From Patescibacteria group bacterium (GTDB lineage Bacteria > Patescibacteriota > CPR2 > UBA1875), in the NCBI GenBank assembly GCA_041737595.1, contig JBGSRK010000005.1, positions 55,185 through 119,184 of the forward strand: a DNA stretch of 64,000 nucleotides, given 5' to 3'. Below the pieces are notes generated by a model, which ran no database searches, was not told the DNA's origin, and was given only the letters and a program-made list of their open reading frames with translations. Position numbers and translations under genes: made by a program. Of the stretch, positions 628 through 52,228 are shown piece after piece; the stretch's first letter is position 1; every line of letters begins with the position of its first letter.

Positions 628-670
628 AAAAAGCAATAGACCGGCCTCGCGAAATCGCGAAGACCGGTCT
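628..670 (-). terminator. 3' hairpin/intrinsic terminator of islet 1
   Basis: AGACCGG..TCGCGA-AA-TCGCGA..CCGGTCT followed by a T run on the minus strand. Confidence 0.75.
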
Positions 671-677
671 TTACTTG

Positions 678-968
678 TTATACCTCATACACGCACATCG
701 TTACTTCGCCCAGACAAGCTGGTGCTTCAGCATGATATATCTTGCCTGTAGCGTGCACTTCGATTCGATAATGTAGAGTTACTCCTTCAAGATTACCGGA
801 AAGAAGTGTGAACGACCCCTTAATTGAATCAAGAAGATTGCGCTCATAGAGAGCATCAAGCAACTCTCTTCTAACTCGAATCGTTCCATTTGTTGTCTCT
901 TTACCATCGGCCCGATAGACCTTTGTGAAAAGTGGTTCCCTGTTGGAAACCGCAGCATCTGTCCCCAT
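678..968 (-). CDS. Orphan hypothetical protein (islet 1)
   Basis: 96-aa ORF with AAGGGGG SD, own promoter and terminator. Confidence 0.65.
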   Translation of the reverse strand: MGTDAAVSNREPLFTKVYRADGKETTNGTIRVRRELLDALYERNLLDSIKGSFTLLSGNLEGVTLHYRIEVHATGKIYHAEAPACLGEVTMCVYEV

Positions 969-1046
969 CTCGTTACCCCCTTAAACTGATGGAATGAGTT
1001 TTTTCGACATATGCTGTGGTGCTTGAGGCATTTAACAAGCAAAACA

Positions 1047-1075
1047 ATAATAACTTTAATTTTGAGCCACGTCAA
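1047..1075 (-). promoter_or_regulatory. sigma70-type promoter of islet 1
   Basis: TTGACG-17 nt-TATTAT. Confidence 0.7.
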
Positions 1076-1096
1076 GCCAATATTATATTAACTTAG

Positions 1097-1128
1097 AAAA
1101 ACACCCTAGGTATATTTCAACCTAGGGT
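1097..1128 (-). terminator. Intrinsic terminator of islet 2
   Basis: ACCCTAGG-loop-CCTAGGGT then GTTTTT on minus. Confidence 0.75.
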
Positions 1129-1150
1129 AGTTGCTCAACCAACGAGGCTT

Positions 1151-1480
1151 TCACCGATGTATCCTTGGATCAATTTGGGAAGTGAGTTCAAAATCAAAAT
1201 ACCTTATCTTCCCCTCCCCTTCACAAACAGTCCGGTAGACACAGTTGAACCTTCGCCCCTTGTTTCCAATTTCGAAGACTCCAACCGAAGTCTGAAACGC
1301 CTCAGCCCGGGAACCAAGTCGAATCCCGAACTTAGCCAACGTTCTACGTGCCTCGGCTACTATTTCGGTACACGATTGGCATGGATCTTTCCCGACAAGA
1401 GGGACCGTAATGATGCCATAGTTGGTCCTTCTATAACCAGAAGTGTCGCACTCCATCTTGAGCCTCCTCACGTCGCCCAT
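1151..1480 (-). CDS. Orphan hypothetical protein (islet 2, gene 3; CxxC)
   Basis: 109-aa ORF overlapping the upstream ORF; exact start uncertain. Confidence 0.6.
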   Translation of the reverse strand: MGDVRRLKMECDTSGYRRTNYGIITVPLVGKDPCQSCTEIVAEARRTLAKFGIRLGSRAEAFQTSVGVFEIGNKGRRFNCVYRTVCEGEGKIRYFDFELTSQIDPRIHR

Positions 1481-1755
1481 TGCTTGAGTATGACATTACC
1501 ATCCTTGAGTGAACATGAATACACCGACATAAGGATGCCGGTTCGGGAATGAACCTGAATTCTGACAACTTGTGATAGATATCCACTTCGTGGGACGATG
1601 TTCTTATTGACATCGAATGCACGAAATGACGTATCGCACTCGCTATCAGGAAGGCCATACCCATTGGAACGAATACGACGAAGTTCAGTGAAGACACACT
1701 CGAGCATATCTTCGTCAGGGCAACCTATGAGCTCAATGTTTATAGGCTCATTCAT
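1468..1755 (-). CDS. Orphan hypothetical protein (islet 2, gene 2)
   Basis: Start MNEPINIE at an ATGA overlap with the upstream stop, GAGGTG SD. Confidence 0.6.
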   Translation of the reverse strand: MNEPINIELIGCPDEDMLECVFTELRRIRSNGYGLPDSECDTSFRAFDVNKNIVPRSGYLSQVVRIQVHSRTGILMSVYSCSLKDGNVILKQWAT

Positions 1756-2030
1756 GCTGCCACCTCTTCGATACCCGAGATAGTATACCAAGCTTTCACC
1801 TGGTAAGTACTATCTGTCTTTTCGACACGAGCTTCCACCTTTTGACCATCCGTATTAGTAAAATCAATACGAATGATTTTCTTGATGACGATTTTGACAC
1901 TTACTGTCTTAAAACCGTAAACAAGAAGTAGAAGCTTCTCACAAGCAAGAGTCAGGGTACATATTTCTTTTGCGGTTGGACGTCCAGCTGAGGACTCAAT
2001 CGCAAGATCAAGAATGTTATTCACATCCAT
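1752..2030 (-). CDS. Orphan hypothetical protein (islet 2, gene 1)
   Basis: Start MDVNNIL after AAGGGGGG SD; -10 TATAAT at 2074-2079. Confidence 0.6.
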   Translation of the reverse strand: MDVNNILDLAIESSAGRPTAKEICTLTLACEKLLLLVYGFKTVSVKIVIKKIIRIDFTNTDGQKVEARVEKTDSTYQVKAWYTISGIEEVAA

Positions 2031-2113
2031 TTTGAGCCCCCCTTGGGTTCCTACCGTCTCTGACGTTATCGGCATTATATACCAAAAAAACTAATTTTAA
2101 AAGAATAAAAAAC

Positions 2114-2141
2114 AAAAAAAGCAGCTTTCGCTGCTTTTTTT
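2114..2141 (-). terminator. Terminator after rpsJ
   Basis: A7-GCAGC-TTTC-GCTGC-T7. Confidence 0.8.
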
Positions 2142-2537: not shown

Positions 2538-3716
2538 TTATTTTGTAATCTTTGTTACTATACCCGCACCAACTGTTCTACCACCTTCTCGGATAGCGAA
2601 CTTAAGACCTTGGTCCATAGCAATTGGTTGCATAAGTTTAACATTGAAAGTGATTTTATCACCTGGCATTACCATTTCGGTACCTGCAGGCAGTTCTACT
2701 TCTCCTGTAACATCTGTTGTTCGAATATAGAATTGAGGTTTGTATCCTTTAAAGAATGGTGTATGTCGTCCACCTTCTTCTTTTGTTAGGATATAAACTT
2801 CTGCTTCAAATTCTGTGTGAGGTGTAATTGAACCTGGTTTTGCAAGAACCATACCACGTTCGATATCATCTTTTTCAATACCACGTAGTAAAAGTCCTGC
2901 GTTATCACCAGCTTGACCTTGGTCAAGTTGTTTTTTGAACATTTCTACACCAGTAACAACAGTTTTTCTTGTTTCTTTTATCCCAACAATTTCTACTTCT
3001 TCATTGATTTTAATAATACCTGATTCAATACGACCCGTAGCAACTGTTCCACGACCTTTAATCGAGAAAACATCTTCTACCGGCATAAGGAAAGGTTTAT
3101 CTAAATCACGAACTGGTTCTGGGATAAAATCATCAAGAGCTTTAACAAGTTCAAGTATAGATTCTTCATATTTAGCATCGCCTTCAAGAGCTTTAAGAGC
3201 TGAACCACGAATAATTGGAGCATTGTCTCCATCAAAATCATATTTTGAAAGCAATTCTCTAATTTCCATTTCAACAAGATCAAGCATTTCTTCATCGGCT
3301 ACCATGTCACATTTATTCATAAAAACAACAATTTTAGCTACACCAACTTGGTTAGCAAGCAAAATGTGTTCACGAGTTTGTGGCATTGGACCATCTGTTG
3401 CAGCTACAACTAATATAGCTCCGTCCATCTGAGCTGCGCCGGTAATCATGTTTTTAACATAATCTGCATGACCCGGACAGTCAACGTGTGCATAATGTCT
3501 TTTATCTGATTCATATTCAACGTGAGCGGTAGAAATAGTTATACCACGTTCACGTTCTTCAGGGGCTTTATCAATATTTTCGAAGGCAGTAAATTCTGCT
3601 TTACCGTCTTTTGAAAGAACTTTAGTAATAGCAGCTGTCAAAGTTGTTTTCCCATGGTCTACGTGACCTATAGTACCGACATTGACATGAGGTTTTGAAC
3701 GATCAAATGTTGCCAT
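2538..3716 (-). CDS. tuf: Elongation factor Tu
   Basis: [28 protein letters not shown]. Confidence 0.99.
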
Positions 3717-3810
3717 TTGGGGTCCTCCTTTAGATTAACTTTATAGTTTAGACAATAAAACTTATCCACAATAAGTGGAATTGGTAACTAACTTTTTGTG
3801 TTACTTCGCT

Positions 3811-3839
3811 ATTCTATTATAATTTGAGTTGATTTGCAA
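3811..3839 (-). promoter_or_regulatory. Dedicated tuf promoter
   Basis: TTGCAA-17 nt-TAGAAT upstream of the tuf AAGGAGG SD. Confidence 0.6.
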
Positions 3840-3851
3840 GTATTTTTATCT

Positions 3852-3883
3852 AAAATGACAGGACCCCGCCGGTTGGCGGGGTC
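3852..3883 (-). terminator. 3' hairpin of islet 3
   Basis: GACCCCGCC-4 nt-GGCGGGGTC; weak U tract. Confidence 0.7.
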
Positions 3884-3904
3884 AATGGACAAGAAGAGGA
3901 TCAT

Positions 3905-4081
3905 TCAGTCGAGGTGCATGTATGAAAAGGCTGCGTCACGTTCTTCGCGAAAAGTGCGTACCTTCGGCGAAACCAGTGATGCCAACCAAATCGGAAATTC
4001 GATCAGCATACACATAATCGCGCTGAGTACGACGAGAGTGATCAAAACCGAATCGATCACCCATTCTTTGAATCTAAACAT
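3905..4081 (-). CDS. 58-aa small membrane protein (islet 3, gene 2; not in ORF track)
   Basis: GGAGG SD then MFRFKEWVIDSVLITLVVLSAIMCMLIEFPIWLASLVSPKVRTFREERDAAFSYMHLD*. Confidence 0.65.
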   Translation of the reverse strand: MFRFKEWVIDSVLITLVVLSAIMCMLIEFPIWLASLVSPKVRTFREERDAAFSYMHLD

Positions 4082-4091
4082 AGCGGCCTCC

Positions 4092-4412
4092 CTATCCTAG
4101 GCCCATTTCGTTGAGCTCGTCGAGAGTCGAGTTGTAGTCGGGCTCAAAGTTCGGTTTGATGAAACGGCCATGAATTCGAGATTCTTCGAGTTCCCTCACA
4201 AGCATATCATGTGCGGGCTTGTTGTGACATTGAGTACAAACGCTCGGCGACTCAAAGTCACAGTCGATACAGATCGCCGGATCAGGCCTGCCGGAGTTCT
4301 TTGCTCGCAACAGACGGATGACTCCGCCTGCCACAACTACTACAAAAGCGACCAAAAGAACCAAAACGATGGCACCTTCGGTTGTCGAGATAAGACCAAT
4401 GAACCTCCCCAT
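4092..4412 (-). CDS. Single-TM protein with CxxC..CxxC zinc-ribbon-like motif (islet 3, gene 1)
   Basis: AAGGGAGG SD; hydrophobic N-terminus; CIDC and CTQC. Confidence 0.7.
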   Translation of the reverse strand: MGRFIGLISTTEGAIVLVLLVAFVVVVAGGVIRLLRAKNSGRPDPAICIDCDFESPSVCTQCHNKPAHDMLVRELEESRIHGRFIKPNFEPDYNSTLDELNEMGLG

Positions 4413-4463
4413 GTTTCCTCCCTTAGGTTCGCACGGATTTACACCGTGAATATTAATACGATT

Positions 4464-4491
4464 ATTATATAATATTTTTAAAATAATTCAA
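4464..4491 (-). promoter_or_regulatory. Promoter of islet 3
   Basis: TTGAAT-16 nt-TATAAT. Confidence 0.6.
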
Positions 4492-4497
4492 TAACAC

Positions 4498-4524
4498 AAA
4501 AAGAGCCCACATGGGCTCTTTTTT
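4498..4524 (-). terminator. Terminator after fusA
   Basis: AAAAAGAGCCCA-CA-TGGGCTCTTTTTT. Confidence 0.8.
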
Positions 4525-4536
4525 ATAATTATTTTG

Positions 4537-6648
4537 TTATTCAGTTTCTAGATCTACTTCTGTTTCTGATTCTAATTTACTGCCACGTTTTGCTTTAATT
4601 TCTTCGGCAATGTTATTTGGAACTTCTTCATAATGGTCAAATTCCATTGCATAAGAAGCTCTTCCTTGAGTCATAGAACGAAGGGATGTTGCATAACCAA
4701 ACATTTCTGAAAGTGGGACAAAAGCATCTACCACTTTTGCACTAGCCCTATCTTCCATCTTTTGAATTCGGCCACGTTTTGAGTTAAGGTCACCCATAAC
4801 ATCACCCATAAATTCTTCAGGGGTTACAACTTCTACTTTCATAACAGGCTCCATAATTACTGGTTTACCCTTTTTAACACCTTCTTGGAAAGCCATTGAA
4901 CCTGCAATTTTAAAAGCCATTTCTGATGAATCAACTTCGTGATATGAACCTTCAAGAAGTGTAACTTTAATATCTACAACTGGGTATCCAGCGATAACAC
5001 CATTAGCCATAGCATCTTTAACCCCTTGTTCAACTGGTTTTATATATTCTTTTGGTACAGAACCACCAACAATTTTGTTTACGAATTCAAATCCTCCGCC
5101 TTGTTCCATCGGTTCAACTTCAAGCCAAACGTGACCATATTGACCACGACCACCAGTCTGTTTGATATATTTACCTTCAGCTTTATTAGCATTTTTAATT
5201 GTTTCACGGTAAGCAACTTGAGGTTTACCAACATTTGCCTCAACCTTAAATTCTCTTTTCATACGATCAACAATAATTTCAAGATGTAATTCACCCATAC
5301 CACCAATAATTGTTTGGTTTGTATCTTCATCAGTTCTAACCACAAAAGTTGGATCTTCTTCTGCTAAACGAGAAAGTGCAACACCCATTTTTTCTTGGTC
5401 AGCTTTAGTTTTTGGTTCTATTGCAATATGAATAACTGGATCAGGGAAAGTTATTGCCTCAAGTATTACTGGATTTGCAGCATCACAAAGTGTATCTCCA
5501 GTTGTAACTTTTTTCAAGCCAACTGCAGCTGCAATCTCTCCTGAATATACTTGATCAACATCTTCTCTCTGATTTGCATGTAATCTAATAATTCGGCCTA
5601 AACGCTCTTTTTCACCAGTGGTTGAATTATGAACATATGAACCAGCCATAATTGTTCCAGAATATACACGGAAAAATGCGAGTTTACCAACAAATGGATC
5701 AGATGCAATTTTGAAAGCAAGAGCAGTAAATGGTTCTTCGTCAGAAGCATGTCTTTCAACCTCTTCGCCTGTCTTAACATCAATTGCCTTAATTGCAGGA
5801 ACATCAAGTGGGTTTGGTAAAAAATTTACGATAGCATCAAGTAATGTTTCTACTATTACTCCTCGTCCATCACCACCCATAATTGGAAAAAAATCACCGG
5901 CTAGAACAGATTTTCGAATAGCTGTAATAAGTTCTTCTTCGGTCAGTTCTCCCCCGTTAAGATATTTTTCCATTATAACTTCATCAGCTTCTACAGCTTT
6001 TTCTAAAAGCTCGTGTCTATATTTTTCGACTTTTTCTTTCATATCTTCAGGGATTTCAATTTCAGTTAATTCTTTATCTTTATAATCTGTATATTTGTAT
6101 GCTTTTCTAGTAATAATATCGACAACACCATTTATGGCTTGTTCAAAACCTATTGGTAATTGTATAGGATATGCATTTTTTGAAAGTCTTTCTTTTATTG
6201 AATCAAGGGATTTATAAAAATCTCCACCAGTTTGATTTATTTTATTAATAAAACAAATTCGTGGGACATGATATTTATCAGCTTGGCGCCAAACTGTTTC
6301 AGATTGAGGTTCTACACCCATTTTCCCATCAAAAACCACAACTGCACCATCAAGCACTCGAAGTGAACGTTCAACTTCAACTGTAAAGTCCACGTGTCCT
6401 GGAGTATCAATAATATTTATTCTTTTTTGTTTCCAAAAACAAGTTGTTGCTGCAGAAGTAATTGTTATCCCACGTTCTCTTTCCTGTTCCATCCAATCCA
6501 TAGTTGCTTCACCTTCGTGAACTTCACCTATTTTATGAGTTTTACCAGTTCTATAAAGAACACCTTCTGTAACTGTGGTTTTACCGGCATCTATATGTGC
6601 GATAATACCAATATTTCTAGTATCTTTTAAGCTATATTCTCGAGCCAT
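4537..6648 (-). CDS. fusA: Elongation factor G
   Basis: [25 protein letters not shown]. Confidence 0.99.
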
Positions 6649-11504: not shown

Positions 11505-14500
11505 TTATTTGTCCTCCTCTTTTAACACATCAAAATCGCTAATTGATTCTTCTTTTTCTACATCCACCTTTGGAGAAACTTTATCAGCTTTATCTCCTTC
11601 TAATAACACAGTATCACCTAACTCTTTTATATTTTTTTCATAATCTTTTTCAATTAATTCTTCTGCAGAAAATTCTTTTGCCTTTTTACCATCTTCTGAT
11701 AATAAATCAATTGAAAGTCCAAGTCCTTGAAGTTCTTTTACAAGAACATTAAATGATTCAGGGACTCTTGGTTCACGAATATCTTCACCTTTAATGATTG
11801 ACTCATAGGCTTTTGACCTTCCAAGAACATCATCTGATTTTATGGTTAGAATTTCTTGTAATGTATGTGCTGCACCATAAGCTTCAAGTGCCCACACTTC
11901 CATTTCTCCAAATCTTTGACCTCCCATTTGAGCTTTACCACCAAGCGGTTGTTGAGTAACCATTGCATAACTTCCGATTGATCGGGCATGAATCTTTTCT
12001 TCTACCATATGATGGAGTTTCATAATATATGTAACACCGACTGTAACTTTTTGATCAAATTTTTCACCAGTACGGCCATCATATAGAACTTCTTTTCCAT
12101 CTTCTGATTTACCAGCTAATTTTAATTCATTTTTTATTTGATCAACTTTAGCACTTAAAAATACTGGACATGCAACTTTATAACCAAGTGCGCTAGCAGC
12201 CCAACCAAGATGAACTTCAAGAATCTGCCCAATATTCATACGAGCAGAAACCCCAAGTGGGTTTAGAATAATGTCAACTGGTGTCCCATCTTCAAGATAT
12301 GGCATATCTTCTACTGGAGCTATTTTTGCAATAACACCTTTATTACCATGTCGACCGGCCATTTTATCACCAACTGTTATTTTAACTAAACGAGCTACTA
12401 ATACATCTATCTGTTTTATAACTCCCGCAGAAAGATCATCCCCTTTATCTCTTTCCCGAGTATTTACACCAACAACTTTACCGTAAATTCCGGGTGGGAT
12501 ACGAAGAGACGTATCTTTAACATCTCTAGCCTTTTCCCCAAATATTGCGCGAAGCAATCTTTCTTCTGCAGAAAGTTCAGTCTCACCTTTTGGAGTAATT
12601 TTACCAACCAAAATATCTCCGGTTGCAACTTCGGCTCCAATTCTGATTATTCCGTCTTCATCTAGATTTCTTAATGCTTCTTCACCAACATTTGGGATAT
12701 CTCTTGTAACCATTTCCGGCCCAAGTTTTGTATCTCTAATATCAATTGTAAAATTTTCGATATGTATAGAACTATATGCATCTGATTGAACAAGTTTATC
12801 TGAAATAATAATCGCATCTTCATAGTTGTAGCCACTCCAAACCATAAAGGCAACTGTTAGATTTTTACCGAGAGCAATTTCTCCCTTTTCTGTAGCCGGA
12901 CCATCAATTAATGTATCACCTTTTTTAACTTTTTGGCCGTTAGAAACAGCCGGTCTTTGGTTAAAACAGGTATCACTATTTGTTCTATCAAATTTACTAA
13001 TTTCATATGCTATTTCTTCACCGCCAGTATATTTAACTTTTACCAAAGAACCAGTTGAAGAAGTAACTGTACCATTACCAGAAGCAACGATTGTAAGCCC
13101 TGTATCAACTGCAACTTTGTTTTCTAAACCTGTACCAACAATTGGAGCACTTGGCATTAGAAGTGGAACTGCTTGTCGTTGCATATTTGCAGCCATAAGA
13201 GTTCTTTTACCATCATCATGTTCAAGGAAAGGAATGAGACCAGTTGAAACAGATACTGTTTGTACTGATGAAACATCCATATAATCAACTTCGTTATTAG
13301 ATACTTCTTGAGCTTCACCAAATTTACGAGCTGTAACAAGATCTTCAATAAAATATCCCTGATCATCAATTTTTACATTTGCTTGAGCAATAATTGCCTT
13401 TTCTTCAATGTCAGCAGTTAAATAGATTATCTCTTTAGTCACACAAGGCTTAACATTTATTTCTTTTAATTCAGTAATTTTTGCTAATTTTTTTGCAAGA
13501 GCTTCGCTAACTTTTTCGCCCTTTTTAGCAACAATGACATTTTTTGATTTAATGTTTTCGGCAATAACATATCCGACTGATGATTTCCCATCATTCGGTA
13601 AAATTCTTTTCACTATTCTATATGGAGTCTCTAAAAATCCATAATCGTTTACCTTGGCATATGATGCAAGATAGTTTACAAGACCAATATTTGGTCCTTC
13701 AGGAGTTTCATTTGGACAAATACGTCCATAATGAGTTCTATGAACATCACGTACTTCAAATCCTGCTCTTTCTTTTGAAAGACCTCCGGGCCCGAGTGCT
13801 GATAAACGTCTTTTATTAGCAAGTTCTGCAAGTGGGTTTGTTTGTTCCATAAACTGAGATAACTGAGATGAAGCAAAAAATTCCTTAATGACAGCAGATA
13901 TTGGCCTAACATTTATAAGTTGAGAAGGAGTAGTTGTTTGTGGTTCAGAAGTAGACATTTTATCTTTAATATTTCTCTCTGCTCTTAAAATACCAACTCT
14001 AAATCTTTGTTGTAGAAGTTCCCCAACACTTCTTATTCGACGATTTGCTAAATGGTCAATATCTGTTGTTTCACCTTGAACAACATTTAATCTAACAACT
14101 TCTTTAACAATTGCAACAAAATCTTCTTTTCTTAAAATTCTATTTTCTTTAATATTTTTAATATCAATATTTAGACTCTTATTCATTTTATAACGACCAA
14201 CCCTAGAAAGATCATATTTTTTAAAGTCAAAAAACATACCTTCTATTAATTGTCGTGCATTATCAACAGTTGCTAAATCACCAGGACGGATTTTTTTATA
14301 AACTTCAAGAAAAGCTTCTTCTTGAGTTTCTGTAGGATCTTTTGAAAGTGTTGATTCAATATAATCCATTTCTGGGTCAGTATTAACATCTGCAAACATC
14401 TTTTTAATTTTACTATTATCTGGGTAACCAAATGCTCGTAATAATGAGGTCACTGCAATTTTTCTTTTTCTGTCGATTTTTACAAAAATTGCACCGCTTG

Positions 14501-15023
14501 CAGATGTTTCCATTTCAAGCCATGCACCTCGGCCAGGAATTATCTTTGCGCCAAATAATTTCTTATCACCTGAATACTCAGCAGTGAAAAATACACCAGC
14601 GCTACGTACAAGCTGAGAAATAATAACACGTTCTACACCATTGATAATAAATGTCCCTCGTGGGGTCATAACTGGGAAATCTCCCATAAATATTTCTTGT
14701 TTTTTTGATTTACCCGTTTCAAGATTTTTAAGAGTAACTTCTACTTTAAGAGGTGCTTCAAAATTTATCTTTTTACCACGAGATATTTTTTCTGTATATT
14801 TTGGTTCATCTAAAAAATAATCGCTGAATTCAAGAGAAAACATTTTTCCTGAATAATCAACGATTGGGTTCACTTCTTCAAATATTTCAGCGATACCTTC
14901 TCTTAAAAACCAATTGTATGAATTGGTTTGAATTTCGATTAGGTTAGGTAGTTCTAAAACATTTTGGACGGGCTGAAAAAATTTTCTTTTACCGGCTGGG
15001 GGGGTTGGGTTTTGTTTCGACAT
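11505..15023 (-). CDS. rpoB: RNA polymerase beta subunit
   Basis: [21 protein letters not shown], Rif cluster. Confidence 0.99.
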
Positions 15024-15152
15024 AAAAATACGGCTCCCTTTCCATGTAGGAGTTAGTTAATATTCCCTTTTAATAAAAACGCCTCTTGTAGAACTAAACT
15101 GTTAGGCACTAGAAATTGTAACCGACTTTTTCCACAGTGTCAATATTTTTTT

Positions 15153-15188
15153 AAAAGCAAAGGGCCACACGTATTGTGTGGCCCTTGC
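15153..15188 (-). terminator. Terminator of islet 4
   Basis: AAGGGCCACAC-loop-GTGTGGCCCTT followed by T-rich tail on minus. Confidence 0.75.
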
Positions 15189-15198
15189 CATGAATTGG

Positions 15199-15750
15199 TT
15201 ATTTGGTGTCGATTTGTGTCCCAGTACTAATCGTCCCCCTTGGGACAATGAAATAGTACTCTGTCCCTCCGTAAACCTCTTGCCATTCGAAATTCAAACC
15301 GCAAGAGTTGAAAACAAATTCATGCCACCAACCATTCTTCGCATAACGACGGATAGCGAAAAGCCTTCTCTCAAGTCGTGGCAAGGTCACAGAGTCCTGT
15401 TCCTGAATATAGATCGGGTATTCTTTCTTGACCAACGTTTGTTGGACAATTCCTTTGTCTGTGTTGAAGGCATAGAAATACGTTGGTGTTGCACCGACAG
15501 TACCACAACCGAGAAAGATATCACCGCTTGCATTAGCACTATCGGAGAGTGCAACTAGGTGTGTAGTATAGACGACTGGCTTCGATTCTTCAATTGAAGC
15601 ATTGTTACCCGCCCAAATGAGGAAAAAGAAGAATATTGCCATCAATATTGAGAAACCACAACCTAAACAGCCATTCCACTCTTCCCAGAACATTAGAACG
15701 AAGAAACCAATAATGCCCACAACAATAACAGCGCTCAAGGACCAACCCAT
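15199..15750 (-). CDS. Two-TM orphan membrane protein (islet 4)
   Basis: GGAGGG SD favours start MGWSLSAV at 15750; two hydrophobic helices then a soluble domain. Confidence 0.7.
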   Translation of the reverse strand: MGWSLSAVIVVGIIGFFVLMFWEEWNGCLGCGFSILMAIFFFFLIWAGNNASIEESKPVVYTTHLVALSDSANASGDIFLGCGTVGATPTYFYAFNTDKGIVQQTLVKKEYPIYIQEQDSVTLPRLERRLFAIRRYAKNGWWHEFVFNSCGLNFEWQEVYGGTEYYFIVPRGTISTGTQIDTK

Positions 15751-15789
15751 GGCTACCCTCCAATCAAAGTGCACCTTTTGGTCAAGCTG

Positions 15790-15818
15790 ATTATATAACT
15801 AGAGTTGGTTTTAGTCAA
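15790..15818 (-). promoter_or_regulatory. Near-consensus promoter of islet 4
   Basis: TTGACT-17 nt-TATAAT. Confidence 0.8.
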
Positions 15819-15821
15819 TGA

Positions 15822-16421
15822 TTATCTGGATTTTATTATCTCATCTATTACACCATATTTTTTTGCCTCTAAGGCTGTCATGAAATAATCACGCTCAACG
15901 TCAGTCTCTATTTTTGTTTTTTTCTGGCCAGTGTGAGTGGCAAGTATTCCATTTAAACTATCTTTTATCCTTAGTATTTCTTTGGCTTGAATTGAAATAT
16001 CTGTCGCTTGTCCTTCTGTTCCGCCCCAAGGTTGGTGAATCATAACTCTTGAATTAGGGAGTGAATATCTTTTACCTTTTTCACCAGCCGCAAGTAAAAT
16101 TGATGCGGCAGAAGCTGCTTGGCCTACACAAATTGTTTGGACATCACATTTTATAAACTGCATTGTGTCATATATCGCAAGAGAAGATGTTACTGAACCA
16201 CCGGGAGAATTAATAAAAAGTTTAATATCTTTTTTATCATCTTCTGCTTCCAAAAAAAGAAGCTGTGCAATTACAATATTTGCGAAATGATCATCAATTT
16301 GTTGTCCTAAAAAAACAATTCTATCTTTCAAAAGACGAGAATAAATATCATAAGCTCGCTCTCCCATTGAAGTTTGTTCAATTACGGTAGGTACTAATAT
16401 TTGAGATTTTGTTTCAGACAT
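15822..16421 (-). CDS. clpP: ATP-dependent Clp protease proteolytic subunit
   Basis: [22 protein letters not shown]. Confidence 0.98.
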
Positions 16422-16433
16422 TATTACTCCAAT

Positions 16434-17724
16434 CTATTTTATTACGTTTTTATCCCATAAAGCTTGCATTGTTTTATGGATAACAAGAGTATTCCCTATT
16501 TCTCTTCGTCTGTCTGGAGTTTCATAGGCAGCTTTTACATCTTCAGCTGAAGCCCCTTCGCTTGATATTGAAACAATTCGATCAATTTCAGCATCAATTT
16601 CTTTCTCTTCTATATTAATATTTTCTCGCCTGGCTACTTCCCCAAGAACAATCCCAATTTTAACTCTTTTTTCAGCTTCTGGTTTCATCTCTTTCTCAAG
16701 ATCTGGTAAGGTTTTTTTACTCATTTCCAAAAACTGCTCCATTGTTAAACCTGACCCAGAAAGATTATGTTCAGCTTCATGAATCATTCTATGAACTTCT
16801 TCTTCAACTAACATATTAGGAACTTCAATTTTATTTTTTTCTGTAATTGTTTTTAAGATGTCTTCTTCTGTTAATCTTTTTTGTTCTAACTCTTTTTGGA
16901 ATTCAAGTTCTTTTCCCAGCTCTTCCTTAAGTTTAGCTACAGTGTCAAAACCAACTTTTTTTGCAAAATCATCGTCTGCTTTTGGTGTGACTATTTCATA
17001 AACATTATTTAATTTTACTTTAAAATTTGTTTTTTTCCCGGCAAGATTTTTAGCATGATAATCAGCTGGAAAAGTAATATCGATATCAAATTCATCCCCA
17101 GCCTTATGCCCAACTATTTTCTCTTCAAAACCAGGAATTAACATATTAGAACCTAAAATCACGGGATGATTTTTTGAAGTACCTCCATCAAATGGAAGAC
17201 CTGTCATTGTACCTTCAAAGTCAATTTCAACCTTATCTTCTAATTTTGCGGCTCTTTTTACAACAGTTTCTTCATTCTGTTTTTTTTTGCAAACCTTCGA
17301 GAGCAACAGCCTTATCTTTTTCTGTTATTTTTTCTTTTCTGGGTTTTATCTTTAAACCTTTATATTTAAAATCTTTAAGTTCTGGAAGAACTGCAACAGT
17401 GGCCTCAAAAAGTATTTTTTCTCCTGGGATGAATTGAACAACTTTAATTTGTGGGTTTCCTAATGGTGAAATTTTTTCAGCGACTAATGCTTCAAAATAT
17501 GATTCAGGGATTGCCTTATCAACAACTTCTGCCCAAAATTTATCTTTTCCAACTTCTTTTTCAACAACATGAAGTGGGGCCTTCCCTGGACGAAAACCAG
17601 GTACTTTTACAGAACCTCCAAGGTCTTCTAATACCATTTGAGTCACTTTTTCAAGCTTAGTTTTATCTACTTCAATCTCAAATTTTACTTCACTCCCCTT
17701 ATTATCTAGAACTTTATAACCCAA
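16434..17724 (-). CDS. tig: Trigger factor, split into two ORFs by one extra A in an A9 run at 17280-17288
   Basis: GFRPGKAP in ORF 17272-17724; FKBP and C-terminal domains in ORF 16434-17306; adjacent to clpP. Confidence 0.9.
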
Positions 17725-29774: not shown

Positions 29775-29816
29775 AAAACAATTATCAAGTACTCTTAATT
29801 GAATTACAAGTGTACA

Positions 29817-29860: not shown

Positions 29861-29957
29861 TGGTATCAACTCAGCAGGATTCTCAGGGAGGCCAAGAATT
29901 CTTTTCACCCCAGATGAGGGACTGAGCGACGCCAGAGTATTCAGTTTTTGGGATTGC

Positions 29958-30170: not shown

Positions 30171-30287
30171 GGTTCTTGCCTCTCTCTTACTACGACTACT
30201 AGTGTGATTAATCTACGACTTTAGCTTCGTTGCGTACTCCTTTCCGCTTTAGGCGGGGTTGGACACGGCGAGAGACACTCGACCAAT

Positions 30288-30316
30288 ATATTATCATATA
30301 TTATATATTATGTCAA
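30288..30316 (-). promoter_or_regulatory. Promoter of islet 5
   Basis: TTGACA-17 nt-TAATAT with TG extension. Confidence 0.65.
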
Positions 30317-36487: not shown

Positions 36488-36562
36488 AAGATTATTCTTT
36501 GCCGTAAGATAATATCAAAAATTAGAGTAAGAGTCAATAAAAATGTCTTTTTACATAGAGTG

Positions 36563-36770
36563 CGAGCCGCCCCGAAGGGGCGGCTCGTTTCCGACAAAGA
36601 GTCGGTCTGGTGTCATCGTTACCCTACCCTGAGGGATTAGAATCCCAAGGGCAACGTACCAGACGAAAAGGTCCTCAGGGCTTTCGGGGACTTGCATTTT
36701 CGTCCAATTTCCGGCTTACGCCAGAATGACAATTGCGCGAATGCGCTAGCCCATTTTGAGTGGGCAGAAG
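36563..36770 (-). ncRNA. Candidate multi-hairpin structured RNA trailer of islet 6
   Basis: Seven consecutive stems on the minus strand including UUCG and GUAA loops. Confidence 0.45.
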
Positions 36771-36779
36771 TAGTTCACG

Positions 36780-36923
36780 TTAGGTAGTCTCTGACACTTT
36801 CTGCTTTGCTCTCTTGTTGGGGTTTGAAAACCTTCCCTCAAGAATAGCAATAACGAACAGAGCGAGACCAATGAAGCCAATGATAGCAGCTACAATATAA
36901 GCTGCAATTCCCAAGGGGATCAT
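36780..36923 (-). CDS. 47-aa single-TM peptide (islet 6, gene 4; not in ORF track)
   Basis: MIPLGIAAYIVAAIIGFIGLALFVIAILEGRFSNPNKRAKQKVSETT*. Confidence 0.6.
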   Translation of the reverse strand: MIPLGIAAYIVAAIIGFIGLALFVIAILEGRFSNPNKRAKQKVSETT

Positions 36924-36929
36924 CTTTCG

Positions 36930-37337
36930 TCACAGATCCAGTGACTTGCGTCGATACTCGTCCGGCTCGTTGTAGCCGAGAAATGAATCCGACTCAACGG
37001 GCTCACATTCGAACCTTGGATGATTCGGACAAGTATCGTTGTGACAGTAGGGAGTCTTGAAACCCTTGACAGCCCCAGGAGCGATTCTCCCAAGACTAGT
37101 TTGGACACGAATGACTTTGTTCGCAAGACAAGGGACAAGTGCTCCATGCTCGCAAACGGTGCCATTCTTACCTGCGATTGCGATTGCCATGCAAGCATCG
37201 AGAACAACGTCTGGATCGTTTCTGTAATCCTCATTCTCGAATTTGAGGAGTGAAAGACCCATTTCTGAAGCAGCTGAAATGGCGTGATTATCCCCAGCCT
37301 TTGCTGCTTCAAGTAGTTCGTGTAATTCTTTGTGCAT
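36930..37337 (-). CDS. Cys/His-rich orphan protein (islet 6, gene 3)
   Basis: AGGAGG SD before MHKELHELL; CEH, CHNDTC. Confidence 0.65.
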   Translation of the reverse strand: MHKELHELLEAAKAGDNHAISAASEMGLSLLKFENEDYRNDPDVVLDACMAIAIAGKNGTVCEHGALVPCLANKVIRVQTSLGRIAPGAVKGFKTPYCHNDTCPNHPRFECEPVESDSFLGYNEPDEYRRKSLDL

Positions 37338-37354
37338 GATTCCTCCTGGTGTGA

Positions 37355-37702
37355 TTAGGCCGTCGCGAATGATGCGTCGGCCTGGGCTGCAACTTGGGGG
37401 ATAGGCACGATATTGATGATGGCCGTGCCACAATTCTGGCACATACCTTCTTCGTAGGCAAGCCGGGTGGCTTCCTGGTGGCACCGATGTGATTCTGTCT
37501 TGACAGAACTCGCACATTCGGGGCAACCACCTTCATAGTAGAAGGTACGCTTCATCTTGCGTGAAACACGACATTTCGAACGAACGACGCCAAGCTTGAA
37601 GCTCGCGTCGTTGAGCGAAAGTGCCATTTCGGTCAGAGTTGGCCCTTGGATTGGCTCAGTCTGATCGCCACGCAAACGATTCCGGGGAATCTTGTCGGAC
37701 AT
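37355..37702 (-). CDS. Cys-rich orphan protein, putative Zn finger (islet 6, gene 2)
   Basis: AGGGAGG SD; CPEC and CQNC. Confidence 0.65.
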   Translation of the reverse strand: MSDKIPRNRLRGDQTEPIQGPTLTEMALSLNDASFKLGVVRSKCRVSRKMKRTFYYEGGCPECASSVKTESHRCHQEATRLAYEEGMCQNCGTAIINIVPIPQVAAQADASFATA

Positions 37703-37815
37703 AACGCTTCCTCCCTCTAGTCTCTGGTTTTCCTTCCTAGGAACCCAGAGAAACTAGGGACCTGCTGGAATTACCATTGCATCACTCCTCTCACACTCCG
37801 TGAGCCTTTTCGGCT

Positions 37816-38037
37816 CTACATTTTATACCACTCACCAACCCCGATAAGGTTGACAAGGGTATGCCACTGAACCTCCCACCAATCACCTAGTGACTTTCGT
37901 GCACTCGGGGTAGTCGTTAGGTATTGAATATACCCAGCAGCAATCAAGATGAATGAACAGGCGATTATAGTAATCGCTATGTTGAGTCCCTCCTTGGGGA
38001 AAGAAATCCCCAAGAGAATAATATCATTAGTAATCAT
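37816..38037 (-). CDS. 73-aa membrane protein (islet 6, gene 1)
   Basis: GGAGGAG SD; hydrophobic helix. Confidence 0.65.
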   Translation of the reverse strand: MITNDIILLGISFPKEGLNIAITIIACSFILIAAGYIQYLTTTPSARKSLGDWWEVQWHTLVNLIGVGEWYKM

Positions 38038-38115
38038 GGCTCCTCCATTGACGTGAACTAATTGACAAGTTACTAGAAGTACCCCTATCTAGGAATACGA
38101 ATTCTCGAAGACCAA

Positions 38116-38144
38116 ATCATATCATATTTGAGCTTAAAAGTCAA
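38116..38144 (-). promoter_or_regulatory. Promoter of islet 6
   Basis: TTGACT-17 nt-TATGAT with TG extension. Confidence 0.75.
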
Positions 38145-49692: not shown

Positions 49693-49838
49693 TTTATCTA
49701 TCTCTCCGTGTCCCCACGGATCTTCACTTTTTAAGCGAAGCCTTTCAAAAAAATTTACCCATATTTGGGCAGATTTCAGTATAGCCTAAATCTTTACGAT
49801 TGTAAAGATTAGAGAATTTTAAATTTTAAAACCAATCA

Positions 49839-49885
49839 AAAAGAAGACCCGCAAAGTACACGGGTCTCCGGTTTACTTTGCGGGT
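49839..49885 (-). terminator. 3' hairpin/terminator of islet 7
   Basis: ACCCGCAAAGTA...TACTTTGCGGGT then CTTCTTTT on minus. Confidence 0.75.
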
Positions 49886-49903
49886 ATAGTTGTGGGTACG
49901 TGA

Positions 49904-50734
49904 TCAAATGGCTGGAACCCTCTGCTCCAGAGGGATATAGCGATTGACCATTGTTTGTGCATATTGCACAGCTCGATCGAGATCAAGACGGTCAGTTGCC
50001 TTATCTCGGAGACCACCCTGGGCATCAACTGATGTCTCTGGGAACTGCTCCAAGATAGGAAGACAATGTGAGTAACAGATGTCAGAAAGACCACCGGCTA
50101 CACCAATGTCGATATTGATCCCCCGTGCCCTGATCTCCTTGATGTAGGGATAGAGTTCGAATGGATCGAACCTCTTCCCCTCCCCACCAGAAGGATCAAG
50201 AAGCACGTAATCAACAATCCCCTGGTAATCATGAAGCCATACCGAAAGGGTTGTGGGATCATGGTTCGTCATCGCAAAAGCGTCTTCTCCAACCTGGAGA
50301 ACGATGTAAGGCTCATGATCCCCGCTATCACGGAAATACTGATGCCAGAATTCCCTTACCTCAGCCGGTTCTGGCCAAGGTACATTCAGCTGGACACCAT
50401 CAATGTTCTTTGGATAGCCGAGGATGTCGAATAGATCCTTCAGTTCAGATGCGATGTCTTCCGCATCTGTGTTGAAGTGGATCAGCCCGAGAACTCTTGG
50501 GTCATGAGGAATAATCTCCTCGACCTTTCCGATCTCGGGGTAACGCTCTGGCCAACGGTTTATCCCCCCTCTCATCGTCTTCGATGAAACAAGAACACCG
50601 GCCATCAACATAACCGGCAGCTGCTCCCAATCACCCATTGTTTTGCCAGTGAGCTTTGGGAAAACCTTGAGCACCTCCTCAACTTGCTCACAAGCAGTGA
50701 AGCCTGTGACTCCGACGTACGGTTTTCTCCCCAT
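49904..50734 (-). CDS. TrpF/PRAI-like TIM-barrel protein (islet 7)
   Basis: YVGVTGF, GVQLN, LLDPSGGEG, GVAGGL, SVDAQG; AAGGGAGG SD before MGRKPY. Confidence 0.7.
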   Translation of the reverse strand: MGRKPYVGVTGFTACEQVEEVLKVFPKLTGKTMGDWEQLPVMLMAGVLVSSKTMRGGINRWPERYPEIGKVEEIIPHDPRVLGLIHFNTDAEDIASELKDLFDILGYPKNIDGVQLNVPWPEPAEVREFWHQYFRDSGDHEPYIVLQVGEDAFAMTNHDPTTLSVWLHDYQGIVDYVLLDPSGGEGKRFDPFELYPYIKEIRARGINIDIGVAGGLSDICYSHCLPILEQFPETSVDAQGGLRDKATDRLDLDRAVQYAQTMVNRYIPLEQRVPAI

Positions 50735-50804
50735 CTCTGTTGTTCCTCCCTTGGGTACTAAAAGAGCGTCCAATAAGGACACTCTAAGCCAACGATCGAA
50801 GTTT

Positions 50805-50832
50805 ATTGTATCACTATTTAAATAAAATTCAA
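50805..50832 (-). promoter_or_regulatory. Promoter of islet 7
   Basis: TTGAAT-16 nt-TACAAT with TG extension. Confidence 0.6.
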
Positions 50833-50834
50833 TC

Positions 50835-51527
50835 TTAATTATAAAATCTATGTTTCATTTTAGTAAGTTCTGATTCAGCATTTTGTCCAATCCAATGCTC
50901 TGTTTTATTTTGAGAATCTGAAAGATTTTTTGAGATCAAAAGTGCCTTTTTATATAGATATATATTTCGTGATTTACCTATTTGTCGAAGAGCCCAATTA
51001 ACTGCTTTACGGACAAAGTTTCGATCATCTTGAGCACTATTTTTAATCACTTCAAGTAACTGAACAAATATTGTGTTCGGAATATCTTTATTATGTACCG
51101 AAAGCCAAGCCATAATAACAAACCCAACTCTTTTTACAAATTCCTCTTCCCTCTTTGAATATTCAAAGGCTTTCTCTACGGCAAAGGATGTTTTATCAAA
51201 TAAATCACCACAAACAGTATCACAAACATCCCAAGAATTAATATCTAATACCCAGCTGTCCATTTGTTTACTCGTCACAAGTTCAGGAACATCTATCATC
51301 GCTGCAAGAAGAAATGTTTCACGATAACCTGATTCCCAAAGTTCTAGAGCTAAAATATGTCTATCTTCTTTTGAAAGTATTTTTTTTATTTCTTTTGCTT
51401 TGGAACGTATTTCAGGCTGAGAAACTCCAAATGATTTATTTGTATCAATGCCAAAACGAGCTTGCCCCTTGCGGTTATATTCTGTCCCTATGGATTTAAA
51501 ATATTTAATTATTTCTTTTGGTTTCAT
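50835..51527 (-). CDS. DNA alkylation repair protein (AlkD-like HEAT repeat)
   Basis: SWDVCD, EEFVKRVGF, FVRKAVNWALRQIGK. Confidence 0.88.
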   Translation of the reverse strand: MKPKEIIKYFKSIGTEYNRKGQARFGIDTNKSFGVSQPEIRSKAKEIKKILSKEDRHILALELWESGYRETFLLAAMIDVPELVTSKQMDSWVLDINSWDVCDTVCGDLFDKTSFAVEKAFEYSKREEEFVKRVGFVIMAWLSVHNKDIPNTIFVQLLEVIKNSAQDDRNFVRKAVNWALRQIGKSRNIYLYKKALLISKNLSDSQNKTEHWIGQNAESELTKMKHRFYN

Positions 51528-51574
51528 ATTATTATCTATTTTTTCTAAACCTCTTTTTTGTTATTCTTTTTTTT

Positions 51575-51673
51575 GTCATCCTGAGTGAAACGAAGGATCT
51601 AGATTCCTGCCTAAAACGTCCGAATGGCTCATCTGGACGAAGGGTATAGATTCTTCACTATGTTCAGAATGAC
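51575..51673. repeat. Composite palindromic repeat (GTCATCCTGAG..GAAGGATCT / AGATTCTTC..TCAGAATGAC arms with an inner hairpin)
   Basis: Arms match the copies at 62514-62572 and 59844-59870. Confidence 0.8.
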
Positions 51674-51703
51674 AATGCCTAGGTTTATTTTATCATAAAG
51701 GCG

Positions 51704-51733
51704 AAAGGCCTGCCGACACATGGTCGGCAGGCC
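51704..51733 (-). terminator. 3' hairpin of islet 8
   Basis: GGCCTGCCGAC-5 nt-GTCGGCAGGCC. Confidence 0.7.
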
Positions 51734-51754
51734 GAAAGATTCGCGTTCTTCTTG

Positions 51755-52153
51755 TTAGGAAACCTGTGATAGATCGTACAGATTATCCATCTGCACGATG
51801 AGCTCGATGGGCAAAACGGCCGAAATTGAGATGATGACTTCATTCAGACACACAACCCTTGCGATGAATTCAGGGTCATGTGTAATACTAGGGTCCTTCT
51901 GAATCTCAGAAATCAGCTCATTGATAGTTGCTCTTGCGATCACAACCGACTCCCCGCTTATCGGAGCAGACGGTTCGCCACAATGGCGACCATACTTGCA
52001 GATAACTCGCCGAAGATCATCTTGGTCACTAAATGGGATAGTCCCTCGCTCTGACTCGCTGCTGCAAGTCGATGGCACTGAACGCACAGAACTGTAACCA
52101 GAAATTGATGATGAGGTCATCCCCTCCCTGGGGCCACTCGGACACCGGCTCAT
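51755..52153 (-). CDS. Orphan hypothetical protein, Ser-rich N-terminus (islet 8)
   Basis: TAAGGGAGG SD before MSRCPSGP. Confidence 0.6.
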   Translation of the reverse strand: MSRCPSGPREGMTSSSISGYSSVRSVPSTCSSESERGTIPFSDQDDLRRVICKYGRHCGEPSAPISGESVVIARATINELISEIQKDPSITHDPEFIARVVCLNEVIISISAVLPIELIVQMDNLYDLSQVS

Positions 52154-52200
52154 AACTTCCTCCCTTACCCCGAAAACTGACAATAAGAACGATGTTTAGT

Positions 52201-52228
52201 ATTTTACTCTTAATTAAGAAAAGTTCAA
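52201..52228 (-). promoter_or_regulatory. Promoter of islet 8
   Basis: TTGAAC-16 nt-TAAAAT. Confidence 0.6.

Follow-up and report, generated by a model that had tools for sequence, protein, structure and literature searches.

We analyzed a 64,000-nucleotide (nt) stretch of DNA, hereafter the window, which corresponds to positions 55185–119184 of contig C54 in a Patescibacteria genome bin (G000) from an AT-rich, ultra-small bacterium. The bin comprises 1.09 Mb in 143 contigs, with main contigs at 32–37% GC, a completeness of 96.9%, and a contamination of 3.5%. The backbone of the window consists of housekeeping genes (rpsJ, tuf, fusA, rpsG, rpsL, rpoC, rpoB, clpP, a ClpB-like ATPase gene, rplS, and dnaE), among which lie eight short islets of higher GC content. 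Each islet has the layout of a small transcription unit, and the predicted islet mRNAs are folded far more strongly than shuffled sequences. The original prediction had described the islets as GC-rich transcription cassettes, six of them with 3′ trailers pairing with their own 5′ end, Shine-Dalgarno (SD) sequence, or start codon to give closed-loop mRNAs. All eight lie on the minus strand, but this says little, since nearly all genes of the window do so as well. Across the whole window, an Rfam scan at the gathering threshold gave one tRNA-Leu as its sole match; the islets therefore do not correspond to rRNA or to any other known RNA gene. The parts of each cassette, with open reading frames (ORFs), protein lengths in amino acids (aa), and predicted transmembrane (TM) segments, are as follows.

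Islet 1 (I1), 628–1075, minus strand: promoter 1075–1047; ORF 968–678 (96 aa); two-tier GC hairpin at ~672–632
Islet 2 (I2), 1097–2101, minus strand: promoter 2101–2074; three tiled ORFs at 2030–1752, 1755–1468, and 1480/1455–1151 (I2a to I2c), the first two with an ATGA overlap; terminator 1129–1102
Islet 3 (I3), 3852–4491, minus strand: promoter 4491–4464; ORF I3a, 4412–4092 (106 aa, TM segment plus C-x2-C...C-x2-C...H); ORF I3b, 4081–3905 (58 aa, TM segment); terminator 3883–3862
Islet 4 (I4), 15150–15818, minus strand: promoter 15818–15790; ORF 15750–15199; terminator 15186–15160
Islet 5 (I5), 29812–30316, minus strand: promoter 30316–30288; 115-nt GC-rich leader; ORF 30170–29958 (70 aa, two TM segments); 136-nt trailer; hairpin at ~29856–29822
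Islet 6 (I6), 36556–38144, minus strand: promoter 38144–38116; four ORFs (I6a to I6d) at 38037–37816 (73 aa, TM segment), 37702–37355 (115 aa, zinc-ribbon-like), 37337–36930 (135 aa, 6 Cys), and 36923–36780 (47 aa, TM segment); 219-nt GC-rich trailer; hairpin 36585–36561 without a T-run
Islet 7 (I7), 49836–50832, minus strand: promoter 50832–50805; ORF 50734–49904 (276 aa); terminator 49869–49843
Islet 8 (I8), 51697–52228, minus strand: promoter 52228–52201; ORF 52153–51755 (132 aa); hairpin at ~51735–51706

All eight islets were recovered by a composition profile and by a separate GC scan. A maximum-likelihood fit of two boundaries placed the islet segments at 45–51% GC and their flanks at 23–35%. 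The GC content of third codon positions (GC3) was 0.35–0.59 in the 14 islet ORFs versus 0.15–0.23 in 16 native genes, with similar values at first and second positions (GC1 and GC2), and the islet leaders and trailers were 42–59% GC. In I1, for example, the GC-rich segment covers 639–1030 at 46% GC, and its ORF has a GC3 of 0.36. Because GC3 and the leaders and trailers are raised while GC1 and GC2 are similar, the shift is one at the nucleotide level.

Transcription start sites (TSSs, placed from −10 boxes) and 3′ ends are predictions throughout. The proposal that the GC shift runs from TSS to hairpin holds for most islets at either end: in six of eight, the 5′ boundary is no more than 10 nt from the predicted TSS (I8 and I6 depart, at −22 and −98), and in six of eight the 3′ boundary is no more than 7 nt from the hairpin end. 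The 3′ departures are I2 (−19) and I8 (+131), where the GC-rich sequence continues through a repeat element. A consensus scan found sigma-70-like promoter sites at the 5′ edge of all eight islets. A strict rule for intrinsic terminators was satisfied by I2, I3, I4, and I7, and the remaining four (I1, I5, I6, and I8) have 3′ GC hairpins with a poor or displaced T-run. The islets are part of a larger population, as GC3 is bimodal across the genome: 92 of 699 ORFs of at least 90 aa have a GC3 of 0.35 or more, and the ten main contigs carry 98 segments that are 300 bp or longer and exceed the GC threshold, a count that takes in at least the 16S rRNA gene. The eight islets thus belong to a genome-wide class of GC-rich ORFs.

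The 14 islet ORFs are preceded by SD-like sites and include the three-gene tiled operon of I2 and the four-gene operon of I6. They had been described as mutually unrelated orphans, and this largely stands: none has a paralogue in the genome, and the ten that were scanned gave no significant match in Pfam, NCBIfam, or PADLOC. The second ORF of I2 (1755–1468) found no relative in a set of 5.8 billion proteins. The exceptions are I4 and I7. The I4 protein (183 aa, two N-terminal TM segments) matches phrog_8077 (E value 1.9e-12) and has a single homologue (P0002, 65% identity), the sole one among the 5.8 billion proteins; a tblastn search against phages gave one weak match (25% identity, E value 2e-4) in an unannotated 484-kb record of an uncultured phage. 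The I7 ORF belongs to a phosphoribosylanthranilate isomerase (PRAI)-like family, and its protein-atlas neighbors are named PRAI family. Scans of viral contigs with I4 and I7 returned no relatives.

The wording "mostly small TM or Cys-rich" fits half of the ORFs on either count, with a hydrophobic segment in 7 of 14 and at least four Cys in 7 of 14. By size and hydropathy, I3b (58 aa) and I6d (47 aa) qualify as small hydrophobic peptides of ~60 aa or less, and the other 12 do not. The SD sites are of the GGAGG class and strong, as had been proposed; the single wording said to recur, AAGGGAGG, is exact in three cassettes. Genome-wide, GGGAGG lies upstream of 9% of GC-rich ORFs versus 1% of AT-rich ORFs.

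Folding of the cassette transcripts

Folding was compared with dinucleotide shuffles in windows of 150 nt, with all folds at 37 °C. Islet sense windows had a mean z-score of −1.77 (n = 53; 40% below −2), and antisense windows of the same DNA had a mean of −1.09 (n = 53; paired Wilcoxon p 5e-4 versus sense). Means for the comparison sets were +0.19 for native AT-rich genes (n = 45), +0.05 for genes on 62%-GC contaminant contigs (n = 45), 0.00 for mid-GC contigs of the bin on both strands (n = 148), −0.82 for the E. coli murC–secA region (n = 44), and −1.08 for other GC-rich genes of the genome (n = 45). The islets differed from native genes (Mann-Whitney p 5e-12), from contaminant genes (p 2e-10), and from other GC-rich genes (p 0.016).

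The excess persisted when synonymous codons were permuted within each ORF, a control that leaves both protein and codon usage unchanged. Islet ORFs then had a mean z of −2.74 (n = 12), with no permutation as stable as the real sequence in 8 of 12 and a value of −4.87 for I5, compared with −0.32 for native ORFs (n = 8; Mann-Whitney p 3e-4). The same permutation gave −1.91 for long GC-rich genes of the genome (n = 12), −1.04 for E. coli segments of 360 nt (n = 9), and +0.31 for the mid-GC contigs (n = 7). In 450-nt pieces folded against 100 shuffles, z was −7.42 for I2 (1518–1967; 0 of 100 shuffles as stable), −4.16 for I6, and −5.06 for I7, alongside −0.38 for tuf and +0.07 for rpoB among native genes and −0.78, −1.99, and +0.20 for ftsZ, secA, and murC of E. 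coli. Folding was strong in I2, I5, I6, and I7, and in I6 all 14 windows of 150 nt lay between −0.8 and −3.2. The islet transcripts are therefore far more folded than either dinucleotide shuffles or codon permutations. A search of seven islets (I1–I3 and I5–I8) against Rfam at E ≤ 1 returned noise alone, with no ribozyme or other family; I4 was scanned at the gathering threshold.

A shared RNA architecture on unrelated genes, as originally proposed, is thus supported in the form of sense-biased folding of the whole transcript; the pairing of trailers with 5′ regions is another matter. With each transcript taken from the predicted TSS to the hairpin end, seven of the eight cassettes fell within chance, I4 being the lone exception, whereas such pairing had been claimed for six. 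The longest 5′–3′ helices were 8 bp in I1, 6 bp in I2, 9 bp in I3 (five G-U pairs), 12 bp in I4, 10 bp in I6, and 7 bp in I8, and the 8–10 bp helices of I1, I3, and I6 appear in minimum free energy (MFE) folds. Tested as contiguous helices with G-U allowed against 500 shuffles, they gave P values of 0.44, 0.96, 0.15, 0.018, 1.0, 0.32, 0.41, and 0.91 for I1 to I8. Duplex energies between 5′ and 3′ segments (RNAduplex, 200 dinucleotide shuffles of either partner) were exceptional for I4 alone (z −2.9 and −3.0, P 0.01), with the other seven at −0.49 to +1.72. In an 8 × 8 matrix of duplexes, the cognate partner ranked first for I4 alone, and the cognate mean (−27.4) equaled the non-cognate mean (−26.3).

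Folds of full-length transcripts agreed. Counts of 5′–3′ pairs, taken as partition-function expectations for I1 and I2 and from MFE folds for I3–I8, were 7.6, 7.1, 12, 12, 2, 15, 5, and 12 for I1 to I8, and were matched by transcripts with shuffled 3′ segments in 3/20, 7/20, 9/20, 10/20, 18/20, 2/6, 14/20, and 16/20 cases, respectively, a lenient control in that shuffling destroys the terminator hairpin too. When each trailer alone, its hairpin kept out, was set against 92 non-cognate GC-rich 5′ regions, I4 was the sole outlier, its 12 bp being reached by 0 of 92 GC-rich and 1 of 200 AT-rich 5′ regions; for the other seven islets, 16–100% of non-cognates equaled the cognate. Across the 92 GC-rich ORFs of the genome, cognate and non-cognate duplexes had the same energy (−15.73 versus −15.52, p 0.83), and 11 of the 92 exceeded all 15 of their non-cognates where ~6 were expected. 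As a class, then, these 5′–3′ helices are no more than would be expected of any short GC-rich RNA. Apparent closing helices of 8–12 bp in short GC-rich transcripts equal the output of shuffled sequences, and call for controls before they are taken as architecture.

The two arms of the I4 helix are as follows.

15742–15753, minus strand: 5′ arm, GCCAUGGGUUGG, containing the start codon
15187–15198, minus strand: 3′ arm, CCAAUUCAUGGC, directly 3′ of the stop codon, forming 12 pairs with the 5′ arm, two of them G-U

The helix is found in the MFE fold, and its two G-U pairs mean that the pairing works on the transcribed strand alone, as had been noted. It would mask the start codon of its own ORF. 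With eight cassettes tested and a marginal P value, we regard this start/stop helix as suggestive rather than proven.

Intergenic slots in related genomes

The islets were compared across 28 genomes of the order, none other of which belongs to the same genus; the relatives within the family are G001, G003, and G004, in all of which the backbone is syntenic. Islet GC3 is ~0.5–0.6 in the four family genomes, and backbone GC3 ranges from 0.18 in G000 to ~0.4 in G001.

One slot is the clpP–rpoB spacer, which measures ~150–160 nt in G001, G003, and G004 and holds I4 in G000. The islet precisely fills the interval from the stop codon of clpP to the conserved promoter of rpoB (TTGACAYTGTGGAWAA), and the extra DNA extends from the −35 box of the cassette as far as its T-run. 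An AT-rich promoter is thus part of the insert. Capture of transcripts as RNA had been one of the suggested origins, and I4, the sole cassette with an empty-site comparison, speaks against it at this site. The rpoB promoter and its surroundings (TTGACAYTGTGGAWAA; window 15143–15115 and loci L108, L110, and L112) are conserved across four genera of the family.

The fusA–tuf gap, which holds I3 in G000, was measured by hand from coordinates in the 18 genomes that have both genes on one contig. It is ~0.8–2.5 kb long in nine and no longer than 240 nt in the remaining nine, and eight of the nine filled gaps exceed tuf in GC content. The gap of G003 and that of G004 contain an operon of small proteins, one with the I3a motif, followed by a small hydrophobic ORF resembling I3b (read by eye). 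The I3a pattern, a TM segment followed by C-x2-C-x2-E-x4-C-x2-C-x5-H-x2-L, has eight invariant columns in G000, G003, and G004 at 27–29% identity, and the cassettes of this type have a GC3 of 0.49–0.56 in the three genera versus 0.18–0.36 for the backbone. A profile built from the three proteins found no further member among the 28 genomes. A segment upstream of tuf (window 3760–3790; locus L110), CCACTT..TGTGGATAAGTTTTATTGTCTAAA, barely differs between G000 and G004, and its core GTTTTATTGTCT is kept in G003 too, which suggests a conserved leader or operator.

Upstream of rplS, where G000 has I6, G004 carries a 1.4-kb GC-rich cassette that comprises several genes and a long folded trailer; the mean z of this cassette across 14 windows is −3.51. 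The two occupants of this slot have no DNA or tblastx similarity beyond the rplS promoter. Both end in long GC-rich, strongly folded untranslated trailers of ~220–300 nt (G000, 36561–36779, minus strand; G004, L116:1165–1460), which likewise lack mutual sequence similarity and Rfam matches. Other slots are filled in relatives and empty in G000; G003 and G004, for example, carry a GC-rich gene of ~310 aa, and G001 has one of 101 aa.

At the site of I8, the homologues of the genes at 60756–61196 and 50835–51527 are adjacent in G003, so I8 and the gene for a 2543-aa protein are absent there. This gene, for a surface-type protein (52241–59872, minus strand), is missing from G003 together with I8 and a plus-strand ORF at 60096–60725, and is therefore part of the variable genome too.

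I7 has homologues in 6 of 40 relatives at 36–40% identity and in at least two gene contexts. Of five loci inspected, three have nrdR-like neighbors and that of G001 differs; most are GC-richer than their flanks. No homologue of I4 was found in a search of the other 27 genomes of the order. A metagenome scan with EF-Tu for close relatives that have empty sites returned loci at 71–77% identity alone. Short contigs of run X6, labeled as rhizosphere metagenome, are ~86–93% identical to parts of I1 and I2 (1009–1204 and 1824–2092) and ~91–96% identical to backbone genes, which suggests that a related species in this sample also carries I2. Run X3 likewise yielded short contigs ~86–93% identical to parts of the window, including I2.

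Explanations and known systems

Our leaning, held with moderate confidence, is that the islets are moron-like, exchangeable cassettes in fixed slots whose mRNA is kept GC-rich and folded, probably for stability in a cell that degrades mRNA with RNases Y and J. Each islet would be a self-contained accessory transcription unit with a sigma-70-type promoter, a strong SD, one to four small orphan genes (often for membrane or Cys-rich proteins), and a 3′ GC hairpin. Such units would be gained, lost, and replaced at intergenic slots over evolutionary time, much as morons are, but in a cellular chromosome. We infer that dense folding, rather than a donor signature alone, accounts for the persistence of high GC, and that folding, strong SD, and 3′ hairpin most likely make for a long-lived mRNA. 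The genome encodes RNase Y (TIGR03319, 663 bits) and RNase J (TIGR00649, 621 bits), both above cutoff, and has no match to RNase E/G (PF10150).

Several results weigh against this reading. Folding is uneven, being weak in I3 and I4 (z about −0.9 to −1.0) and in the fusA–tuf cassettes of G003 and G004 (−0.78 and −0.26), and I2c shows no excess under codon permutation (−0.11). E. coli genes are biased as well (−0.8 and −1.0 by the two tests), which means that mid-GC genes can be expected to show some of the effect anyway. The folds were made at 37 °C; the runs containing this DNA are labeled as hot springs and biofilm metagenomes, and no RNA run was listed among them. Both ends of each transcript are predictions from sequence, the coding status of most islet ORFs is deduced from SD sites, tiling, and codon-position GC, and the I3-type family, which appears conserved, is recognized by a short Cys/His motif and by position. 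The patchy distribution of I4 and I7 also fits plain lateral transfer without selection at the RNA level.

Such transfer, in the form of fairly recent imports from GC-richer donors (other Patescibacteria, phages, or plasmids) whose composition, SD style, and folding would be signatures awaiting amelioration, with no RNA function in this host, strikes us as rather unlikely, although a good deal speaks for it. Slots differ in presence and absence, with clpP–rpoB empty in three relatives; I4 matches a phage protein family, and a search of the order's other 27 genomes did not find it; I7 occurs in 6 of 40 relatives in at least two contexts; and islet GC3 stays at ~0.5–0.6 in four family genomes whatever the background. 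According to PMC12455944, genomic islands and individually transferred genes account for up to 13% of Patescibacteria genome length, with tuf and ribosomal protein genes among those acquired. Simple recent import is nevertheless a poor fit, because no close donor emerged (the best relatives are at 65% identity for I4 and 36–40% for I7, and two viral scans were empty), the I3-type cassette has remained GC-rich at one slot in all three genera, and the mid- and high-GC genes expected of donors have no such folding excess. The islets also lack marks of mobility, as the original prediction had observed: the ten ORFs scanned contain no Pfam domain for integrase or other mobility functions, and no att site, target-site duplication, or flanking direct repeat stood out above shuffles. 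A recurring ATTGAC(T), considered as a flanking repeat, was rejected, as it is the −35 box of successive promoters.

We give next to no credence to an artifact, whether assembly or binning chimeras or the scattered fragments of one degraded prophage. The bin does have a contamination of 3.5% at its completeness of 96.9%, and it includes small contigs of foreign composition (47–62% GC) that are probably binning contaminants; C127, C5, C93, C34, and C105 are at 58–62% GC and ~14 more at 44–55%, and none is similar to the islets. Assembly chimerism was rejected on Logan contigs from two runs, labeled hot springs and biofilm metagenome, that bridge islet–backbone junctions with 0 differences (X1: 1–2313, 3426–4221, 4203–4843, and 14416–16500; X2: 730–2430), although X1 is possibly the sample from which the window itself was assembled; the layout is shared by relatives that were assembled separately. 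A single degraded prophage was likewise rejected, as no phage hallmark genes were found and the islets share no sequence with other contigs of the bin.

Three further accounts bear on the RNA itself. Old GC-rich inserts might be decaying toward AT while the G and C of hairpins in the transiently single-stranded non-template strand are shielded, which would make folding a neutral by-product. Protection of stems during transcription is an idea known from the literature, and the location of the folding excess in the arrangement of synonymous codons, its greater strength on the sense (non-template-like) strand with a weaker excess on the antisense strand, and the confinement of GC enrichment to the transcribed part all agree with it. 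We still judge it improbable, since it does not account for islet GC3 staying at ~0.5–0.6 while backbone GC3 fell to 0.18, nor for unrelated cassettes of one slot both being hyper-folded. Closed-loop or fold-back mRNAs, whether of the hok/aapA kind or as stored or exported RNAs, with trailers that would silence or stabilize the message by pairing with the 5′ end, SD, or start codon, are less probable again as a shared architecture. The 12-bp helix of I4 (P 0.018, 0 of 92 non-cognates), the 8–10 bp helices of I1, I3, and I6 in MFE folds, the genome-wide tail of 11 of 92 ORFs against ~6 expected, and the presence of several small hydrophobic ORFs support this idea. They are outweighed by seven of eight cassettes being within chance by four controls, by equal cognate and non-cognate energies genome-wide, by the marginal P value of I4 over eight tests, by the failure to see an antisense RNA gene or an Rfam match (at the gathering threshold, or beyond noise at E ≤ 1), and by the length of the I4 protein, which at 183 aa is not toxin-sized. 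Finally, the islets could be structured non-coding RNA genes, like the GC-rich islands of AT-rich thermophiles, with fortuitous ORFs. Very negative folding z-scores, the long untranslated regions of high GC that I5 and I6 contain, the orphan status of most ORFs, and long ORFs on the opposite strand too are all compatible with this, but we hold it to be highly improbable: every ORF has an SD and start codon, I2 is tiled with an ATGA overlap, I1, I2a, I3a, I5, I6c, and I7 have the codon-position GC that is usual for coding sequence, I4 and I7 have relatives at the protein level, the I3-type motif is conserved, and no Rfam family was found.

A bolder version of the moron-like reading is possible, and we offer it tentatively, as something we would not expect to be borne out in full. 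The cassettes may express "armored" mRNAs, forming in Patescibacteria a distinct class of exchangeable accessory genes in fixed slots whose mRNA would be held GC-rich and hyper-folded by selection from TSS to terminator, within a transcriptome that is otherwise AT-rich and unfolded, and which would amount to a second, RNA-level regime of expression. Such a class might serve extremely long-lived mRNAs, their storage while the cell is dormant or attached, or the passage of the unit between lineages as a module from promoter to terminator.

The closest likeness is to phage morons, a concept that reportedly goes back to the original Hendrix and Juhala papers. Like morons, the islets are inserted between adjacent backbone genes, have their own promoter and terminator, deviate in GC content, vary in presence, and share hot spots with different units. 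These traits correspond to the definition quoted in PMC2920897, by which morons have their own transcription signals, a GC content unlike that of their neighbors, a variable presence, and hot spots. Here, promoter-like sites were found in eight of eight islets, GC content deviates, and presence varies, the clpP–rpoB spacer being empty in relatives and the fusA–tuf and rplS-upstream slots holding other cassettes. Unlike morons, however, the islets do not reside in a phage or prophage but in a cellular region of translation and transcription genes (flanks rpsJ, tuf, fusA, rpoB, clpP, dnaE, and rplS); they are GC-richer, with at least one type keeping its deviant GC across three genera; and hyper-folded mRNA lies outside the moron concept. 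Taken together, the original observation is partly confirmed and its interpretation partly supported: what we see are moron-like islets with a testable RNA-level feature.

For type I toxin mRNAs (hok fbi/tac, Helicobacter aapA), fold-back inhibition is well known, and the islets resemble them in having small hydrophobic ORFs, a highly structured and presumably stable mRNA, and, in I4, a start codon that would be masked by 3′ sequence. Fold-back exceeds chance in I4 alone, however, most ORFs are larger or encode Cys-rich soluble proteins, and consensus scans of the islets found no paired antisense promoter and terminator. For the suggested type I toxin loci, these sequence scans showed neither an antisense RNA gene nor an Rfam family.

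With respect to mRNA decay, a parallel is the hbs mRNA of Bacillus subtilis, in which, according to PMC5737220, a strong SD, a structured leader, and a 14-bp interaction between 5′ and 3′ untranslated regions control RNase Y and RNase J1 and so stabilize the message. The cassettes share the strong SD, a structured leader (hairpins in MFE folds), a 3′ hairpin, the combination of RNases Y and J without detectable RNase E/G, and, in I4, a 12-bp 5′–3′ helix. They differ in that long-range pairing beats controls in one of eight and in that folding extends throughout the coding region.

In relation to horizontal gene transfer (HGT) in Patescibacteria, the setting agrees with PMC12455944, in which atypical DNA makes up roughly a tenth of the genome, exchange is mostly within Patescibacteria, and tuf and ribosomal regions are flagged; its available text makes no mention of fixed slots, of micro-cassettes that run from promoter to terminator, of a GC content that persists, or of mRNA folding. 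The cassettes resemble genomic islets in their atypical composition and patchy phyletic distribution, and differ in having no mobility genes (ten ORFs, Pfam), att sites, or flanking repeats (compared with shuffles). Nor do they show amelioration, as the I3-type GC3 of 0.49–0.56 in three genera stands against 0.18–0.36 for the backbone. A search of open-access literature turned up no account of cassettes in these bacteria that run from promoter to terminator and are GC-rich and hyper-folded, an absence that is weak evidence of novelty.

If GC content and folding are indeed maintained, composition outliers in tiny genomes would not simply be "foreign DNA," and HGT detectors based on GC or codon usage would misread such cassettes. 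Such maintenance would also provide a testable link between mRNA structure, decay by RNases Y and J, and the expression of fast-evolving membrane and Cys-rich proteins, which are probably mediators of symbiosis. The fusA–tuf, clpP–rpoB, and dnaE–rplS slots and the one downstream of rpsJ are places where cassette turnover can be followed across Patescibacteria.

Neighboring features of the window

A ninth GC-rich ORF lies outside the eight islets, at 61956–62366 on the minus strand. It encodes 136 aa at ~45% GC with a Cys-rich N-terminus and sits between a gatA-like gene and a peptidyl-prolyl isomerase-like gene.

A palindromic repeat adjoins the last islet.

51590–51680, minus strand: palindromic repeat of ~70 nt resembling repetitive extragenic palindromic (REP) elements, directly downstream of I8 and outside the cassette class

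This element (TTGTCATTCTGAG...GAAGAATCTA / AGATCCTTC...TCAGGATGACA) occurs in 20 places of the genome by exact 11-mer and in 31 by 9-mer (for example, C36:54442-55044 and C71:45513). It was considered as a shared end of the cassettes and rejected, as a copy lies beside I8 only, with a partial match in I6. Another copy, at ~62480–62560, falls inside the gatA-like amidase gene (62418–63974) and is read through in frame, which recalls the palindromic elements inserted in frame in genes of Rickettsia.

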